Positions 9,227 to 42,140 of a stretch of DNA of 64,000 bases are shown here, one piece after another (position 1 is the stretch's first letter; the number at the start of each line of letters is the position of its first letter). The stretch comes from Neophaeotheca triangularis. Taxonomy: Eukaryota. The notes below the pieces were generated by a model. It was given only the letters and a program-made list of their open reading frames with translations, did not search any database and was not told the origin of the DNA. Both the position numbers and the translations under genes were made by a program. The stretch covers positions 124,001 to 188,000 of the forward strand of contig BAAIJX010000022.1 in NCBI GenBank assembly GCA_054600435.1, given 5' to 3'.

Positions 9227-9764
9227 ATGAGCGGAACTTCCAACGTCGGACAGCCCAGCGTCTACGAGGCCGGTGACCAGGTACGGCGCGTTCCAAGCAA
9301 CCAGATTACCCTGCAATGGCTGACACTTGTCGCAGAAAAACTCCAAGGCCGGCGCGAATGACAGGGAGGCATACCACGAGGGCAAGACCAACAGCCATCT
9401 TCCCAACGACCCCAGTATGTTGCATCTGATAGAGGTTTTCGAACCATATCGCGCGCTCCGATCTAACATAGTCACAGAGGATGAGCGTTCCATTGCCAAC
9501 AAGCTAGCGCGTGAGGAGAAGCGCCAGAATGAGTCTGAGCCCGAGAGCAAGGAGGTCACTCAGTCCAAGAAGGACTCCACCATGCCCGTATGTATACAGA
9601 AACGCTCGTAGTGGCCGAGGCTGAGAACGTGTCGCTAACTACTCCTCTTCCAGGCTGCCGCCCACGGCAACGAGCCCTCCAAGGGCGCCAAGATCGACCA
9701 GGAGCTGCGCGAGGAGGACCAGGAGGCCGAGAAGAAGAAGGGTCAGTTCGGCCACAAGTCATAG
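9227..9764 (+). CDS. Small conserved hydrophilic fungal protein (stress/hydrophilin-like), 4 exons
   Basis: MSGTSNVGQPSVYEAGDQ / ...DERSIANKLAREEKR... / AAAHGNEPSKGAKIDQELREED...*; three canonical introns; CCCCT (STRE-like) motifs upstream. Confidence 0.75.
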
Positions 9765-15495: not shown

Positions 15496-15945
15496 AAAAA
15501 AAATCCCCCCCAATGTGCCTGACGAGACCAGGGCAAAAGAGAAACTCCCACTTCGCCGGGGACGTCCAGCGCCCCGGGCTTCGGGAGAAGAGAAACCATT
15601 TAACCAGCCCATTTAATTTTTTATCTTTTATGGGCGGCACCTTTCCTTGTGTATTTTTGAAGGAAAGGCTGGTTTTCTGCTTTTTGTAATTTAATTTGTT
15701 AATTCCTTTTTTTTTTAATTGCGCTGGGGTCCGAACCCGGCGCTATTGTTTTATTTTTATTTTATTCGTTTGCGCCGGGTTCGAACCCGCGCACTTCGGT
15801 GGAAGAATCGGTGGGAGGTTTCTCTGGTGGTTTAGTTAGGTTGATTTTTCGGATTGGGATATAGGGAGAAGGGGGGGAGAACGTACCGTTGAGGAATGTC
15901 GTCGAATTCCTTGGAGCGTTTGCGTTTGAGTTGAATATATGGTAT
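15496..15945 (-). ncRNA. Candidate spliced, structured Pol III-type ncRNA gene, copy A (unassigned family)
   Basis: TATA-like 16-mer 15945-15930; A-box-like TTCCTCAACGGTA 15896-15884; intron 15886-15824 (GTACGT..CCTAAC..CAG); B box GGTTCGAACCC about 15788-15777; several GC-rich hairpins; no T4 run on the sense strand until 15538, T8 at 15503-15496. Architecture matches the 41084-41392 locus. Confidence 0.6.
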
Positions 15946-16901
15946 TAAGTCAAAGGGGACCTCGATCCGTAGGTGACGGTGAGGTGAGGTAAGGACGAGG
16001 GTGAGGTGAAGTGAGGTACCTTTGCGCTCTCCCTATGCAGTCGTGACGGCTTTTCTCTTTCACTGTGCAAGGCGCGTTCCCATTGCATGCGAAAAACTCT
16101 CTCGAGACGTCAAGGATAGCCAACCTTCTTGCCCAGCTCTGAAACTGCGTCCACAGGGCTTTTGATGTACCCGTTGTTTTTATTGTAGCCAGCGACATCA
16201 CAGTCTTCACTGCTCAAGGAGACGAATTTGCTTTCGACGACTTCCTGACCACCGGCTGTCAGAGAACCGCTATGTCCAAGCGTAGTAAACATGCCCCTTG
16301 TTTTTAGTCACTCTCCTTCACGGATGCATCGCAAGCGATGGCGATGCTCAGCGAGAGACTGATCCCAAAATGCTATGGCGCCTCCACTAGATGACAAGAG
16401 AATCTGTACCCAGCCAGAACGAACCAGCCTATTGCAAGACCAACATCCCATCTCTCGCAGCAGTTAGAAGCATCCCAGAAACCATTCAAGCTCTTCACCC
16501 AACATTCGCTCTCCACCCAACATTCAAAAGCCATCCAGATCCTTCTCATCCCTCTCCCGCGGCACCTCTTTGTCCATATTCCATCAATCTTCCACATGTT
16601 TCCAGGAAACCCGTCTCAGTACAAAAGCCCAGGCCAGGAGGCGTACGCTCACTCTCACAAACTCTCACAGCATTGTCTTAACCCGACCGTCCCAAGCGCC
16701 GAGCTAAACCTCCAATATTAGCTCCCAGCATCCCCCCCGCCGAGCAGAGAACTCGAAACCCATAACTCCGTTCCCCCCAGGAGCACGCAACCTTCCCTCA
16801 CCTCTGTCCCCCAAAGCTCAGCTTCAAACCCAAACACCAAGACCAAGCCAACACCCAAAACCCCCACATCCACAACAACAACAACAACAGTGACAACCAA
16901 A

Positions 16902-18282: not shown

Positions 18283-19386
18283 CTACATACCACCCCACTC
18301 GATGCAAAAAGTCCTCGTCCCTTTACTATCATCCACCTTGTCATTTTCCTTCTCCTCTCCCCCAAGCAAGTAACCTTTCTTCACACCCGTACCCAACCTT
18401 CCACCTCCCACCAGTTCGAGCAAATCGAACTCTTCTTCCCATTCCAGCCCTTTGCAGAGGAAATGACTATGGAACCGTAATGGATCGCCCGGGTAGGCCA
18501 TGTACTGACTTCCGAAACGTAGACCAGGTGCAAGAAAGTAGCCGTTTTCGTGCATGTGTTTGTAAAGTGGGTATGAGGACGCTGAGACAGGTGGAAGAGG
18601 CAGACTTTCCGTTTGCTGCGAAAGAGTAAGAGGAGGGTAAGTTGTTGTAGGAGTGTTCGGCCAGGGCTCTAGCTCCGGTTCCACAATGGAAGAGGCAGCG
18701 GTGGTGGAAGTTTCGTCCGATTCCCGGCGTGACCGAGGTGGTCCAGAAGTGCTAGGCGGTCCGAAGAGCGACTCATCTTCACTCGGCTGCCTCGCCAGAT
18801 GTGGCATCGGGGGTGTCGGCATGGCTGAGCCGTTTCCAGAAGCCGCGGCAGTAGGTTCCGCCCGTCGCTTGCTAGGCTTCCTCTTACCCTTGCCAGCACT
18901 CGACGAAGGCTGCAGCATGTCTTCGGGAAGATCATTCCAATCGCCACCTGCGTTGGTAGCTTGCATCTTCTTCGCAAGCCCAGCCTTCCGCCTCTCTTCG
19001 CTCTCCTTCTGAAAGCCCTTTGCGGCAGCCATTCCTTGTCGTCGCAAGCAAGCCTCGTATGCTCTCTTCTCCTCACCGCTCAACCCATTCTGCAAGAAAT
19101 CCTGTTTGTGCGCTTTGGTATCATCAACGATATATGCGATGCCCTTGTCCACCAACAGACGAGCCTCTTCGGGCATGAGCTCAAGCGGGATGCCTTGGAA
19201 CACATTCTGCTGCGGTGCTTGCGGAAGGCCTCCGATGAGAACGCCAATGATGTTGTGGTTTTTTCGGAGGTAAGTGATGGCATTGACGTCGTAGAGAAGA
19301 TAACGATGGGCTAGGGTGAAGATGGCAATTGGCAAGGTGGGCTCTGAGGTGCCATCTGGCCCTGAGGCGTTGGTATTGGCAGCCAT
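18283..19386 (-). CDS. SEN34: tRNA-splicing endonuclease subunit Sen34
   Basis: GVLIGGLPQAPQQNVFQGIPLELMPEEA and GYFLAPGLRFGSQYMAYPGDPLRFHSHF...GRLGTGVKK motifs. Likely start MAANTN at 19386, downstream of a 5'UTR intron 19616-19408. Confidence 0.93.
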   Translation of the reverse strand: MAANTNASGPDGTSEPTLPIAIFTLAHRYLLYDVNAITYLRKNHNIIGVLIGGLPQAPQQNVFQGIPLELMPEEARLLVDKGIAYIVDDTKAHKQDFLQNGLSGEEKRAYEACLRRQGMAAAKGFQKESEERRKAGLAKKMQATNAGGDWNDLPEDMLQPSSSAGKGKRKPSKRRAEPTAAASGNGSAMPTPPMPHLARQPSEDESLFGPPSTSGPPRSRRESDETSTTAASSIVEPELEPWPNTPTTTYPPLTLSQQTESLPLPPVSASSYPLYKHMHENGYFLAPGLRFGSQYMAYPGDPLRFHSHFLCKGLEWEEEFDLLELVGGGRLGTGVKKGYLLGGEEKENDKVDDSKGTRTFCIEWGGM

Positions 19387-19483
19387 ATTAGGCGTGGAGA
19401 CGGAGAACTTTGGTATTGAGTCAGCATCAAGAGCTAGATCAACAGCTGTTCGTCGAGTGCGATGGAGTGTTGTCCAGGTTAAA

Positions 19484-19566
19484 TCATACAAAAAAGACAC
19501 AAATTATTTACTCGTCACGAGCCTGAGGCTTCAGGGGATTGACAGATAATAATGTTTTTTAATCAT
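19484..19566 (-). ncRNA. Intronic box C/D snoRNA (SNORD110/snoR14-like; predicted SSU U in GGAUUGACAG)
   Basis: Inside the SEN34 5'UTR intron: box C ATGATTA, 12-nt guide ATCTGTCAATCC, D' CTGA, C' GTGACGA, D ATGA. The guide is complementary to the conserved SSU sequence GGAUUGACAGAU. Confidence 0.75.
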
Positions 19567-20247
19567 GTGGAAATCGCTAGGAAGAAGAAGGCAGGGGGGG
19601 GGGGGTTTAAACTTACAAGTTTAGTATGTCTTTCGAGCAGTGAAGCTCGTCTCTATCAGTTGTTCACGGCATGTTGTGGTAAGGTGATATTAATGAGGAG
19701 GAAGGAATGCGATAGATGAGGTGTCTCAAGCCAAGACACGTGTTTGTGCGATGCCCCGTGCACTACTACCTAACCTACCTTAACCTAAGCATCTAAAATG
19801 AGGTAGCTTACTAATAGTACTACTACTACCTAGTACTAGTAACCTGGAATAGTTGCTGAGGTGGCCGGGACGGGACATGCTCGGAACGAGTCGTGGTAGG
19901 AGCTTGCTCAGCGTAAAAATTCGAGCTCCTTGGATGCCTTCCATGCCTTCCTCCCTCAACAACCTAGAATATCTTCATCTCGACAGTCTACCTAGGTACG
20001 CTTCACATGGTACATACCACCAGCCCGCCAGTATTGTCGCTACGAGGCTTCTGGATGTGGTTCGACTGCAGCACAGCTTGGGCGCCATGCAAAGGCTCGA
20101 AATGCAAAACATCTCTCTCTCTCTCCACTCACTACTAGACTGCTGAGCAAGGCACATGATTACATGGCAGCCAGGCAGTAGTGAGGCACACAAGGCCCAA
20201 CTAGCCCTTATACTGTACGTTGACCCCCCTTCTCTTGCATCTCTATC

Positions 20248-20318
20248 CTGATGATACCTATCACTACTGTTCCGGAGACTATCAATGATCCACGAACAAA
20301 ACATGCATCACCATCTGA
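20248..20318 (+). ncRNA. snR55: Box C/D snoRNA, snR55/U33-like (SSU Um1269, yeast numbering)
   Basis: CTGATGA...CATGCATCACCAT-CTGA. The guide pairs with SSU UGGUGGUGCAUG (one G-U pair), and the +5 rule lands on U1269. Confidence 0.8.
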
Positions 20319-20488
20319 TCCTTCGCCCTACGACTCACCTTCACACCTCACGGCATGGCCTGTCGCGAACTACAGCTGACAGACCTCAAGAACAGAACAT
20401 CCGGCCATGATAGTGGTTTAGGGTCGAAATCAGCAATATGTTAGTACTGGTGAGCATCCCGAGACCCCCGCCTCCCCCCATCCCCAAC

Positions 20489-20566
20489 ATGATGAGTGTA
20501 TCAATTTTCAGTTCTGCTACTGAAGTACAATGTCGAAACTTCATACCAACTTACCAATTTGTCTGA
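20489..20566 (+). ncRNA. snR61: Box C/D snoRNA, snR61/U38-like (LSU Am1133, yeast numbering)
   Basis: ATGATGA...CAGTTCTGCTA-CTGA (D') ...ATGTCGA (C') ...CTGA (D). The guide is complementary to LSU AGCAGAACUG. Confidence 0.85.
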
Positions 20567-20725
20567 TACACAAACGACGTCAATTCTGCATCACACGATG
20601 GAACCAGGCGGGAGAGCGTAAGCTAACCTGCCAACTCAGACAGATCCAAACGCCAGCTTCAAATAGCTTCCTACACACCAGGGTAAGAAATTCCCCATTC
20701 TAAGCACCCTACCCCCAACATTATC

Positions 20726-34662: not shown

Positions 34663-34700
<38 letters not shown>

Positions 34701-34739
34701 TTTAATCAATCAATCAATCAATCAATCATTCAATCAATC
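34663..34739. repeat. (ATCA)n tetranucleotide microsatellite, imperfect
   Basis: About 18 ATCA units with two interruptions, seen directly. Confidence 0.95.
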
Positions 34740-36793
34740 CCATAATCATCAAGCTTTTTCCACGTCTTAGACTTGTAATAACAATAACCATTATTTCGAC
34801 CATTTCAGGAGGGATTCGGGTTGTTGATGTTTAACAAGAATTACTATTACCCCTCACCTGTCACCACCGACGTTGACGGATGGACATTACGACTCCTCCA
34901 GCACGAGCTGCCTTTCGCGGGCCAATTAGGTGTATCCATAGAAGTTATTACTATTCTCCCTGCTCGCACCGCCGTGTTCGACCGCTTCGTAGAGTGCACG
35001 ATGCACGACTATCTATAGCCATCGTGTTGTGGAGCACCCATCTACAGCCAACTCCGTACATAATCCTCCGATTCCACACCGTCCCAATACTCAGAAGTCA
35101 GCTGGTTTCCACGCTCAATGCAGACGTTCGAGTCGGGCTTACCCATGAACCCCTAAATCTCACGACGCAAGTTATTATTTACTCGTTTCTCATCTGGGCC
35201 CATCTGGGCCATGTACAATGCAACCCGCGAGAGTAGTTTCCAACGCCGGCGATGCTGAGATCACCGTTTACCCCAACCCGCCATCCTCCATGCCAATGCT
35301 CACACTCCCAGGTGAAGAGATCGGATATGCTATCCGATCGAGAAGCACCGCATGCTCGGTACGCTGCCACGCAATCTAAAAAAGTGCCCAGGGCCGAACA
35401 TGCCCGACTCCAATATTCTCCGATGAACCATCGTTCGTGTGGACTGCCCGGCGAACGATTGTATAGGCTAGTTCTCCCCAGTCTATCCCTGTTGCTACAC
35501 GATATTGAACCTCTGGCAGCAACTTGAGAAAGCCCCGAAGCCAACTCCGATCTGTACGATAAGCTGGCTGGTTTGGTCATTTACCAACGCAGTCAAGATG
35601 GTGAGTTCTCGAGCGGAACAAAGGACTCGATAACGGGTAAAGCATGGTCGTTTGAGGCGTTCATCGTGTTCGCTCGATTGCGCGCCATTGAACATCTCAA
35701 TTTTCATCTAGGGGTGCCGTCCTTGTCGCACCGAAAGCCTTTTCACGATCACTGATGCCACGAACCGGGGAGACTACCAAGACGTTTCCGTAAAGCACGT
35801 GGGACACCACTACTCAGCTTCCAGATTTCTCAGCTCCTCCCCAGAACACCAATAGACATTCCGCTCCGCTGGGAGGTCAGTTCCAGCCAGTACACGAGCG
35901 CGGCTTCTAAGCTCTCGGCCAGCAATGCAAGAGCAAGAACATCAATTTACGCGACTCACCATTGCCCTCGAGGTCGAGGCCCGCCGCCAGTAGACGAGCG
36001 ACAGCGATCTCTCCCGCTCCGCGAAGAGCGCAGAATCCTTTCCTCCCCCCAAAAAAAACAATTACCTGTACTCCCTGCTACGGCGCGACCGCGTACGAGC
36101 CGGAAATCGTATCTCCATGTTGGGAGAACGCAAGCCCGGCGATTTTCCCACGGTACCCACAATTTCACCTGCAACCGAATCATCAACGGTGAGATCGACA
36201 GGGCATGAAAGCTCAGATCGTCGACGCTCGGCGTCGCCAGAGACCCCGGTTACCATGTATGGGTGCGTTGCGGGGGAGGGAGCTAAAGCTGGTGGGCACG
36301 AAATACTCACTACAACGCATCGAAGATCGTGGTGACGAACGCAAGATCTGGAAGTTGGGAAGGGCGTTTGGTGGGTAAAGCATGGTTGAGGATACTTAAG
36401 TGAGTACCTATCTAGCTGAAGCCTCGTAGTCAGTTGGAGCAGGAACCATTTAGGCTCACAGCTGAGATCACCTTGCCGACGGGTCGGTAAGGTGCGCCTC
36501 ACTGCTCAGAGCTCTTTTTTCTTCTCTGTTTCTTCTTCCTGGCTATAGTCGTTACTTTGGCTCATGGCAGAAGCTGCCCTGCCGGCAAGCTGGCTAGGTA
36601 TGCTTCGATGCCATTTGTTTTCATTCCCCTCTTGTACTCCGCTCTTCTACCCATCGAACTGCGGTCGCATTGGCTAACGGCAGAGACTGCTCGGCCGGTG
36701 AGCCAGCTAGGTGTGCCTCAATGCCACGAGCACAGTGCTTTTTCAAGTCGTCGATGTAGCTCGCGCCGTGCAAGAGGATTTTCTCGACAGAGC

Positions 36794-39864: not shown

Positions 39865-41083
39865 TGTGGATAGAGATTTGCGGTAGCTACCTTGTTCTTG
39901 TCGCAATCTCAGTTGGTTCTGCAGAGGCGATACCTACATACTTATGTCTTCAGCGTCAGCCCCAGAGGCCGGGCGTCCGAATGTCAGCCAAGTGTTGAGA
40001 ATGCAGCTTGTTTTCCTGGCGACGGAGCATGACCCTCTTGCGAGCGGGCAATGGCAAGGCCGAGCATGTCGTTATTGCGAACGGCGTGGAGTCGACATGA
40101 GGTCGGTCAAAGTCTCAACATGAGCCGCCGTCTCTGCCAATGGCAACGAGCTCCGCCCGGCTGCTTCGGGGTTGTTGTGGAGAGCGCGCGGGGATGGTCC
40201 AACGTCAACGTGCATTGGAAATCTGGGCATTGCGACTTGGTCGGTTGGAAGAACGAAGAGACCGTACATCCCATACTTTTCCAAGTATTGATTCTGCTTG
40301 CGTCTTGCCCTGCATCTCATGATCTCACATACTCTGCGACGAATCGAAACGAGTCTCATTGACGCATCGGTAGTGACCTCGGGGCTGCGCGACACCTTCA
40401 GATAGCCATGTCATGTAACGACACTAGCGATCAAACGATACCGTAAACTCCTTCGAGACCCAGCAGTGATATTCACCCATGAATTCTCCCTTGACGACAA
40501 AGCTGTGAATCCAGAAACAATTCCACAGTGTGGCCCTAACACCCTTTGCCGCCTTCTCTTCCTGTCCGAGGATCTCGCAAACCTGATCAGCGATCTTGCC
40601 CCGTGCCTTGCCGTGCCAGCGGAGCAGAGTCGCATCTTCTGAGGCTTAGACGAAAGTACTGGCGTTTTTGAGGTCTTGACATGGGCTTTCATCTATCTGT
40701 TCGATGAGAGAAGCAAAGACGTTCAAGGCTACCGAATCTCGTTCGCTCCGGCTTGCAATACGAAGTGTCAGGGGTATGTTGATAGTGAGTCTCGAACTAC
40801 TCAACTTCTGCTTGTTGAGCCATAATCGATGTTGGGTCTCGCGTAGCATCCGATGCTGCGTCAAGTCAAGGGAGGAGTGTCGGTATCTGAACGCACTTGC
40901 GATCCTTATGTTGTTGATTATGTTTGCAGATTCTGACCGTGAAACCCTCTCAGGCTAGATGCGCGGTCATGGTACAAACTCAGTGCGCATCTGGTGCGTG
41001 GGGGCACAGGTGAGGTGAGGTGAGGTGAAGTGAAGTTGGGGGTGGAAGATCTCCACATCGTCTGCCTTACGGCCACAGGGGGC

Positions 41084-41392
41084 ATACCATATATTCAACC
41101 TCCCGCCAACCTTCCCAGATCCCGCCAACGAGGCGCAATCGGTACGTTTGCCTAATAACTTCCCAATTCGAACCCACGCTAACCTAGTCTTCAGATATCC
41201 GTAGCCAACTGGTCGCCGGTTCGATCCCCCCTCGTCCCCTTCCTCAGTTACGACGTTAAATTAGCGACTGAGGCGTCGTGCAGTTCACCGACGTATAAGC
41301 ACAACTGCCTTGTAGGCCAAAGATAAACCACTCCTTCACTCGGATGAGTTTGCTTTCCCTCCAGTGCTTAAGTTACTGGAGGCTTTCTTTTT
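41084..41392 (+). ncRNA. Candidate spliced, structured Pol III-type ncRNA gene, copy B (unassigned family)
   Basis: 16-mer ATACCATATATTCAAC 41084-41099; A box AGGCGCAATCGGTA 41131-41144; intron 41142-41194 (GTACGT..GCTAAC..CAG); B box GGTTCGATCCC 41218-41228; three hairpins; first T-run of 4 or more is T5 at 41388-41392. Confidence 0.6.
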
Positions 41393-42140
41393 GCTGGGTT
41401 TTGCCCCTTTGCTGTCTTTGGTACATAAATTTGAGCTTAAGAGACATCCATCTGGCTTCATCACCTGTGTTGCTACAGTCTCGGCCACTGGAGAGCGTGA
41501 AGACAACCTGTTGTCAGGAACAGAGGATGAAAACCACCGCGACCATCCTAATCAGTTAACACCAAGGAGACCCACGCTGCTGCCCGAGCACCTCGGCCAG
41601 TTTCAGACATCGTCGCCGCCCGCAGAAACAACAGCCGACAAGTTGCAGCGATCTCATCAGCGCACCGCTATCACCGCTCCACCCGGTGGCTACGCAGTCG
41701 AGGACGCGGCCAGTGATGCTACCAAAACACTTCCTTTGACGCTCGGCGCCGTGGAGCGACGGGCGATGAACCTGAGATTCCTGCTGAGACGCTTGCGCAA
41801 CACAGAGTTTGTTCACCGGTGACCAGCGACCATTGGACATTTAGAAAGGCCAAGGGTCGCATTTCCCGACTTCACATCCGAACCGGCCTTGCTGCCGCGG
41901 CATGCACCCGCTATGGGAAAACAGGCCACTCCTCCGTCGACGGTACCAGATCTATTGCCCGACGACGGCAAAGCAAAGCTCAACGCGTGGATAGTAGGGC
42001 TTGAAAAGAATCTAGGGCAGGTCCCAATATATAGTTGTCGTTAACGCGATACAACGAAAACCAAAACAATGAAATTGCAAAGGATTAAGGACCAATGACA
42101 CAATACTGGATGCGGCTGAAATCTTCTAGAAACCTACAGT

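Follow-up and report, generated by a model that had tools for sequence, protein, structure and literature searches.

In Neurospora, milR-1 to milR-4 are described as Pol III units that lie between genes and have TATA-like elements, T runs and putative A and B boxes, and pri-milR-1 is about 170 nt long (PMC3547838). The promoter of yeast U6 consists of TATA, an A block and a B block, and mRNA-type spliceosomal introns are known in Pol III-made fungal U6, for example in Schizosaccharomyces pombe (PMC5855946). Fungal U3 genes and snoRNA hosts have 5′ exons and introns as short as those considered here and, as far as the available text of a 2017 survey goes, U3 and U6 alone among small structured RNAs are frequently broken up by introns (PMC5832005). 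In AfuSINE2 elements, which are low-copy, the A and B boxes are degenerate, the 3′ part is unrelated, and there is a T tract but no cloverleaf; a second B box occurs in one of them (PMC5063351). Little of the Pol III transcriptome of filamentous ascomycetes seems to have been charted.

Here we analyze two units, copy A and copy B, that lie about 25 kb apart in a window of a black-yeast Dothideomycete fungus (the window being the whole 64-kb stretch of DNA analysed, to which all positions refer); the Anp1 encoded in the window has 99% identity to a protein labelled Neophaeotheca triangularis, followed by Dothideomycete relatives, which places the host close to that species. Copy B lies between a divergent GH43 gene on the minus strand and the convergent 3′ end of a uridine kinase/UPRTase gene, and the neighbours of copy A are the 3′ end of VPS15 and an unnamed ORF. 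Judged on sequence, A and B are very probably two members of one small non-coding RNA gene family, and with slightly better than even confidence we read them as paralogous stand-alone Pol III small-RNA genes, probably descended from a tRNA gene and spliced, in which the 3′ hairpins of B are specific to that copy. The candidate units are:

41118..41392, plus strand: copy B, putative Pol III transcription unit of 275 nt (about 222 nt spliced), with TATA-like core, A and B boxes and first run of at least four T
15535..15910, minus strand: copy A, putative transcription unit of 376 nt, or about 313 nt when spliced, with its end at T4 (15538-35) or T8 (15503-15496)

A tRNA intron endonuclease subunit gene (18283-19503, minus strand) lies 2.4 kb from copy A, probably by coincidence, and 34663-34750 is taken up by an (ATCA)n microsatellite with interruptions, about 90 nt long. 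An intronic C/D snoRNA cluster (20244-20320 and 20484-20569, plus strand) lies within a spliced non-coding host; its snR61 is at the Rfam gathering score and its snR55 homologue is below that score (43.2 bits, E 1.9e-05), and another ATGATGA at about 20727 may represent a further member of the cluster.

Promoter-like motifs and intron-like segments

The link between A and B consists of upstream motifs in the same order and at near-equal spacing, and not of the 3′ hairpins. These motifs are:

41009..41036, plus strand: (GGTGA)n repeat that lies upstream of B and could provide activator sites, in an orientation to the gene opposite to that of A
15978..16014, plus strand: (GGTGA)n repeat upstream of A
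41084..41099, plus strand: 16-mer ATACCATATATTCAAC with the TATA-like core of B, identical in A
15930..15945, minus strand: 16-mer with the TATA-like core of A, identical in B
41131..41144, plus strand: A-box-like motif AGGCGCAATCGGTA of B, which overlaps the putative intron donor (tRNA D-loop position 18/19)
41202..41212, plus strand: second A-box-like 11-mer, in B only, just 5 nt before the B box
41218..41228, plus strand: B box GGTTCGATCCC of B, a T-arm remnant with 3/5 stem pairs
15777..15787, minus strand: B box of A, a T-arm remnant with 4/5 pairs and one arm of a 22-bp hairpin
41168..41174, plus strand: inverted half B box inside the intron-like segment of B, predicted to pair with the B box when B is unspliced (p 0.97)

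Five of the six (GGTGA)n matches in the window lie upstream of A or B, with 0.23 expected. The 16-mer has no third copy in the window within 3 mismatches, and a relaxed search of all 64 kb for a third copy of the gene likewise returned 2 copies only. Exact words of 14-16 nt in common also occur elsewhere in the window by chance, so that a 16-nt word alone is not rare and the case rests on motif order and spacing. From the 16-mer to the donor the two copies align with a score of 53.5 versus 18.2 ± 3.4 for shuffles (0/1000 as good), and in local comparison the spacers between motifs are unlike (422 and 59 of 1000 shuffles as good); motifs were preserved while spacers drifted. A short 5′ hairpin is found in both copies, as are CAA(T)CGGTA in the A-box-like region, CGGTACGTT at 51 and 52 nt after the TATA T, and a CA dinucleotide 27 nt after the same T, from which starts may be placed near 41117-18 in B and 15912-10 in A.

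Pol III promoters of this kind have consensus A and B boxes, with the A box 12-20 nt after the start. The A-box-like motifs (41131; 15896) are 1-2 bases off the consensus and both overlap the donor, and within the window the perfect B-box consensus occurs in A and B only. A spacing of 5 nt, as for the second A-box-like 11-mer of B, is too short for a pair of A and B boxes. Both copies can pair the B-box sequence with an inverted partner, which in B lies upstream, in the intron. In each copy the first run of at least four T is the end of the unit (T5 in B, T4 and then T8 in A), and no such run occurs inside either unit, though the sense strand of A has ten runs of at least four A.

Between the A-box-like motif and the B box each copy contains an intron-like segment:

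41142..41194, plus strand: intron-like segment of B, 53 nt, strict pattern GTACGT ... GCTAAC, 8 nt, CAG
15824..15886, minus strand: intron-like segment of A, 63 nt, strict pattern GTACGT ... CTAAC, 8 nt, CAG

By sequence, both have a GT donor, a branch site and a YAG acceptor at the usual spacing and length. Counting both strands, the window contains 4 occurrences of the strict pattern, the figure from 100 shuffles being 0.3. The remaining two cases are introns of the small protein gene upstream of VPS15, and were taken as real because joining them yields an open frame; this gene (9227-9760, plus strand) has three introns and encodes a small charged, hydrophilic protein. The putative branch site is perfect in B (GCTAAC) and one base off in A (CCTAAC), where it lacks the purine of RCTRAY, and the A intron drops out of the RCTRAY pattern. 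The gap from branch to acceptor is 8 nt in both copies, within the 4-13 nt of 10 candidate introns. The donor GTACGT differs at +4 from the fungal intron donor GTRWGT (PMC5832005); it can also fold into a small hairpin (p 0.59), and it may be no more than the point in the D loop where an A box ends. Removal of the segment improves the folding z of the whole unit in both copies, from -2.33 unspliced to -3.05 spliced in B and from -6.5 to -10 in A, which is very strongly structured. In the predicted fold of spliced B, exons 1 and 2 close one rod, and before splicing the B box is the predicted partner of the intron.

The 3′ domains of copies B and A

The 3′ domain of B, from 41242 to 41392, contains the following elements:

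41242..41273, plus strand: hairpin 1, predicted stable, p 0.88-1.0 for 7 pairs
41280..41308, plus strand: hairpin 2 of the original prediction, complementary but p 0.0; a competitor at 41274-41293 has p ~0.9
41319..41356, plus strand: fourth, interrupted stem, absent from the original prediction, starting with AAAGATAAA, which is common to A
41358..41382, plus strand: hairpin 3, terminal 9-bp stem, z -3.24, p ~0.95
41388..41392, plus strand: T5, the earliest run of at least four T past the TATA-like core and a candidate terminator for Pol III, with a T4 back-up at 41399

The strands of the three hairpins first proposed are all found in place. Hairpin 1 joins CCTCAGTT (41242-49) to GACTGAGG (41266-73) in 8 bp, of which the last is a U-G pair, around a 16-nt loop; GCAGTT (41280-85) is complementary to AACTGC (41303-08) across the 17-nt loop of hairpin 2; and hairpin 3 joins CCTCCAGTG (41358-66) to TACTGGAGG (41374-82), with T5 following at 41388-92 as proposed. 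In folding models both hairpin 1 and hairpin 3 are stable. The ensemble probability of hairpin 2 is 0.0, and so is that of an alternative fold that had been suggested from the complementarity, itself correct, of ACGACG (41250-55) and CGTCGT (41274-79), because 41274-78 pairs with 41289-93; forcing hairpin 2 costs about 3.5 kcal/mol and forcing ACGACG/CGTCGT about 4.4 kcal/mol. An H-type pseudoknot requires a linker, and one formed by ACGACG and CGTCGT was ruled out by ensemble probability and by geometry, there being no linker on either side.

Shuffled sequences had been named as the control that such stems should survive. Three stems in order were seen in 0/2000 shuffles, but under criteria fitted to B post hoc; single stems were frequent in the same 2000 shuffles (8 bp in 274, 6 bp in 766 and 9 bp in 153), and the folding z of 41242-41392 is only -2.01, with 6/200 shuffles equally good. 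Values of z at or below -2 were found in 11/213 sampled 150-nt plus-strand stretches of the window. A window scan for the three-stem arrangement gave 0/2554, on a grid too short for the full span of B, so that the scan does not serve as a positive control. The hairpins of B resemble each other in their CAGT/ACTG cores (as good in 1/1000 shuffles for B1-B3 and in 13/1000 for B1-B2, among 21 comparisons), which points to duplication inside B.

There is no long duplex in copy B, where the longest uninterrupted helix has 9 bp, or 10 bp if reading continues past T5. The latter helix (41316-25 with 41413-22, plus strand, p 0.81) spans T5, would require read-through and ends directly before ACA (41423-25); it may be accidental, or it may hint that the transcript of B is longer. 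The antisense of copy B folds more stably than the sense strand (-64 vs -51 kcal/mol). Such a longer transcript is part of an unlikely alternative, in which both copies are spliced non-coding RNAs made by Pol II from a TATA box in the manner of snoRNA hosts, the B box serves TFIIIC alone, and transcripts may run past T5, in B perhaps to the ACA at 41423-25. Splicing is normally tied to Pol II, the 10-bp helix of B stops right before ACA, and the H-box-like word AGATAA is found in both copies; 5′ exons and introns of this kind are also those of fungal U3 and snoRNA hosts (PMC5832005) and of the snR55/snR61 host in the window. That host, however, has neither the 16-mer nor a perfect B box, and both copies combine perfect B boxes with A-box-like motifs, imperfect but at the expected distance, and with avoidance of T runs. 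Moreover AGATAA lies inside a helix in B or a loop in A rather than in a hinge, and no Rfam snoRNA matches.

Copy A is organized around two larger elements:

15588..15682, minus strand: three-way junction holding the 9-bp and 6-bp stems of the original prediction, z -4.21
15811..15825, minus strand: 5′ strand of a long-range closing helix, starting at the intron acceptor and pairing with 15551-15538 just before the T run

The stems first described for this copy (one of 9-10 bp, one of 6 bp with a 17-nt loop, and CTCCC..GGGAG) are all present, and the lowest folding z among the 213 sampled stretches overlaps copy A. The 13-bp closing helix links the intron acceptor with the T run, has p 0.93-1.0 if T4 is the end, and is lost when A extends to T8; GTGGGAG favours its long-range partner 15817-15811 (p 0.93) over the local terminal stem. 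A further hairpin of A (15720-15793, minus strand) is a near-perfect 22-bp inverted duplication of the B box with an A-rich 28-nt loop.

A near-perfect hairpin of 22 bp would suit a pri-milRNA, and A and B could be Pol III transcripts from which Dicer or Argonaute cuts a stem to give a guide of 19-25 nt. Fast-changing bodies behind a fixed promoter suit guide RNAs, and Neurospora milR-1 to -4 are of like layout (PMC3547838), but the long stem of A is its duplicated B box, the longest uninterrupted helix of B is 9 bp (10 past T5), the reading suits A better than B, and the available text of the Neurospora milR paper uses the word "intron" 0 times (PMC3547838). We regard it as improbable. Somewhat less probable again is that A and B are decaying or non-functional Pol III units, similar to tRNA pseudogenes or to TFIIIC or insulator sites, whose RNA, where produced at all, would have no role, with the B hairpins arising by local micro-duplication. 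T-arm remnants without a cloverleaf, the z of about -2 in B and the likeness among the hairpins of B are what such decay would leave, while intron signals and a T-free body suit an RNA and not a DNA site, the motifs are intact though the spacers have diverged, and copy A has a z of -6.5.

The original prediction saw in the stems of B and A a match in position but not in sequence, as expected from covariation in a functional RNA. Stem number and order are indeed similar, but the spacing is loose (49 nt between hairpins 2 and 3 in B vs about 19 nt in A), B has an extra stem, and the last strand of A pairs elsewhere. The proposed hairpin pairs score like shuffles, with 681, 596 and 837 of 1000 shuffles as good for B1-A1, B2-A2 and B3-A3, and RNAalifold on the A/B pair, part of the recommended check, collapses to -1.9 kcal/mol; its folding term is positive and it recovers none of the stems. 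Covariation cannot be shown by A and B because they are two unalignable sequences. Compensatory change between their 3′ stems is not supported, and the covariation claim should be dropped.

Likeness over the whole 3′ domains is marginal both in structure (22/300 and 29/300 shuffles as good) and in sequence (46/1000 and 41/1000), and a global alignment from the B box to the T run is equalled by 9/1000 shuffles. In the weak sequence signal that there is, B hairpin 2 aligns to A hairpin 1 (loops of both TT/CA..CAC/AA) and the AAAGATAAA stem of B aligns to A hairpin 2, one hairpin off the register first proposed, suggesting that the equal 17-nt loops are probably coincidence. The 3′ domains of A and B may be remotely related. 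It is quite improbable that the three stems of B are structural homologues of the three in A kept by compensatory change: the similar number and order of stems, a structural likeness slightly above shuffles (22/300) and the 9/1000 alignment after the B box are consistent with homology, but the proposed pairs are unlike, hairpin 2 is disfavoured in the ensemble, the register is off by one hairpin and the terminal strand of A pairs elsewhere.

Searches for known families and for tRNA ancestry

Rfam at gathering score returned only snR61 over the whole window, and at E <= 10 the regions of B and A gave only weak unrelated matches. U6 snRNA (RF00026) gave no match at E <= 10 at either locus in unspliced DNA, and telomerase, SRP, RNase P/MRP and U3 were rejected with no Rfam match. 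An H/ACA snoRNA was rejected as well: the H-like word is paired or in a loop, T5 precedes ACA, and no Rfam family matches. As to a protein-coding reading, three short ORFs over the 3′ parts are absent from the protein collection, the 71-aa ORF of B has no homologue there and the 167-aa frame matches no Pfam family, and this reading was rejected. A metagenome scan with a TATA-plus-donor pattern gave 119 matches in 117 stretches, none with the flanks of the 16-mer; 7/119 have a B-box-like word within 330 nt, and the one inspected in detail is bacterial. These matches look like chance and have no bearing on absence in fungi. Searches of the accessible literature returned no description of such units.

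ARAGORN at default score found 0 tRNA genes in 9/9 spliced and unspliced models, with no cloverleaf, and a present-day tRNA gene was rejected; relaxed-score matches were scattered and were not taken as real. After splicing, the distance from C13 to G53, counted by hand, is 30 nt in B and 42 nt in A, and 41197-41213 resembles an anticodon arm by eye, with 4/5 pairs and GCC in the loop. The donor at a D-loop position together with 3/5 and 4/5 T-stem pairs suggests tRNA ancestry. Copies of a tRNA-derived SINE-like retroelement would have a similar build, as AfuSINE2 does (PMC5063351), but the likeness of A and B extends upstream of the putative start while the bodies are unalike, and both copies have the intron, which retroposition would lose. 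No direct repeat of at least 6 nt flanks B, although old copies can lose target-site duplications. Because upstream DNA and intron are parts common to both copies and B is without a flanking repeat, a SINE origin is very unlikely.

Proposed mechanism and comparison with known systems

We return to the reading of A and B as paralogous, spliced Pol III small-RNA genes, for which the polymerase, the splicing and the function are what we infer from sequence motifs. B and A would be paralogues from an old duplication at the DNA level, with a probable ancestor in a tRNA gene whose cloverleaf has decayed. TFIIIC on the A and B boxes would position TFIIIB on the TATA-like core, a step modelled on yeast U6 and tRNA promoters, and Pol III would start about 27-29 nt downstream of that core and stop at T5. 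The spliceosome would then remove 41142-41194 to give an RNA of about 222 nt, predicted to form one 5′ rod closed by 41128-33/41230-35 and 41138-41195/41221-25. The least certain step concerns the 3′ domain, which would be a copy-specific module in which hairpin 3 and the U tail may shield the 3′ end and in which the CAGT/ACTG hairpins would display repeated loop motifs, most likely as protein-binding sites of a scaffold or decoy RNA. Points against this model are the imperfect A boxes, the branch site of A off by one base, the foldable donor, the stabler antisense fold of B, the helix across T5 and the moderate fold of B.

The gene pair is plausibly an undescribed form of Pol III small-RNA gene. 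More tentatively, A and B could belong to an undescribed and possibly widespread class of filamentous-fungus Pol III RNA, derived from tRNA genes with a spliceosomal intron in the D loop, that kept promoter and intron and lost the cloverleaf, each copy bearing a rapidly evolving 3′ module of its own in which loop motifs recur. If so, they would join U6 and U3 as a third kind of small structured RNA that is commonly spliced, and splicing could function as a switch for a Pol III RNA; in unspliced B the intron is predicted to pair with the B-box sequence. Paralogues with intact promoter and splice signals and diverged bodies offer a simple test of the spliceosome on Pol III RNAs other than U6, and the motif set of A and B can be used to find the family in assembled genomes.

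Among known systems, milR-1 to milR-4 of Neurospora crassa are like A and B in being short and intergenic, with TATA-like elements, putative A and B boxes, a T run and hairpins (PMC3547838); no intron is mentioned for them, whereas A and B have an intron-like segment, and B also differs in being without a long duplex. With tRNA genes and AfuSINE2 of Aspergillus fumigatus the two copies have in common a D-loop-like A box end, a T-loop B box and a partial T stem, together with an unrelated 3′ part and a T tract (PMC5063351), although they form no cloverleaf even when spliced, and upstream promoter and intron are common to the copies. Fungal U3 genes with 5′ introns resemble A and B in TATA, a short exon 1 and an intron in the 5′-most hairpin (PMC5832005), whereas A and B have no Rfam U3 match and do have a B box and a T-run end. 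Compared with fungal U6 of the SNR6 type, A and B lack U6 sequence, have the B box in exon 2 instead of downstream, and have bodies that differ between the copies, but they are like it in TATA plus A and B blocks, a short 5′ hairpin, a T-run end and an intron of mRNA type (PMC5855946).
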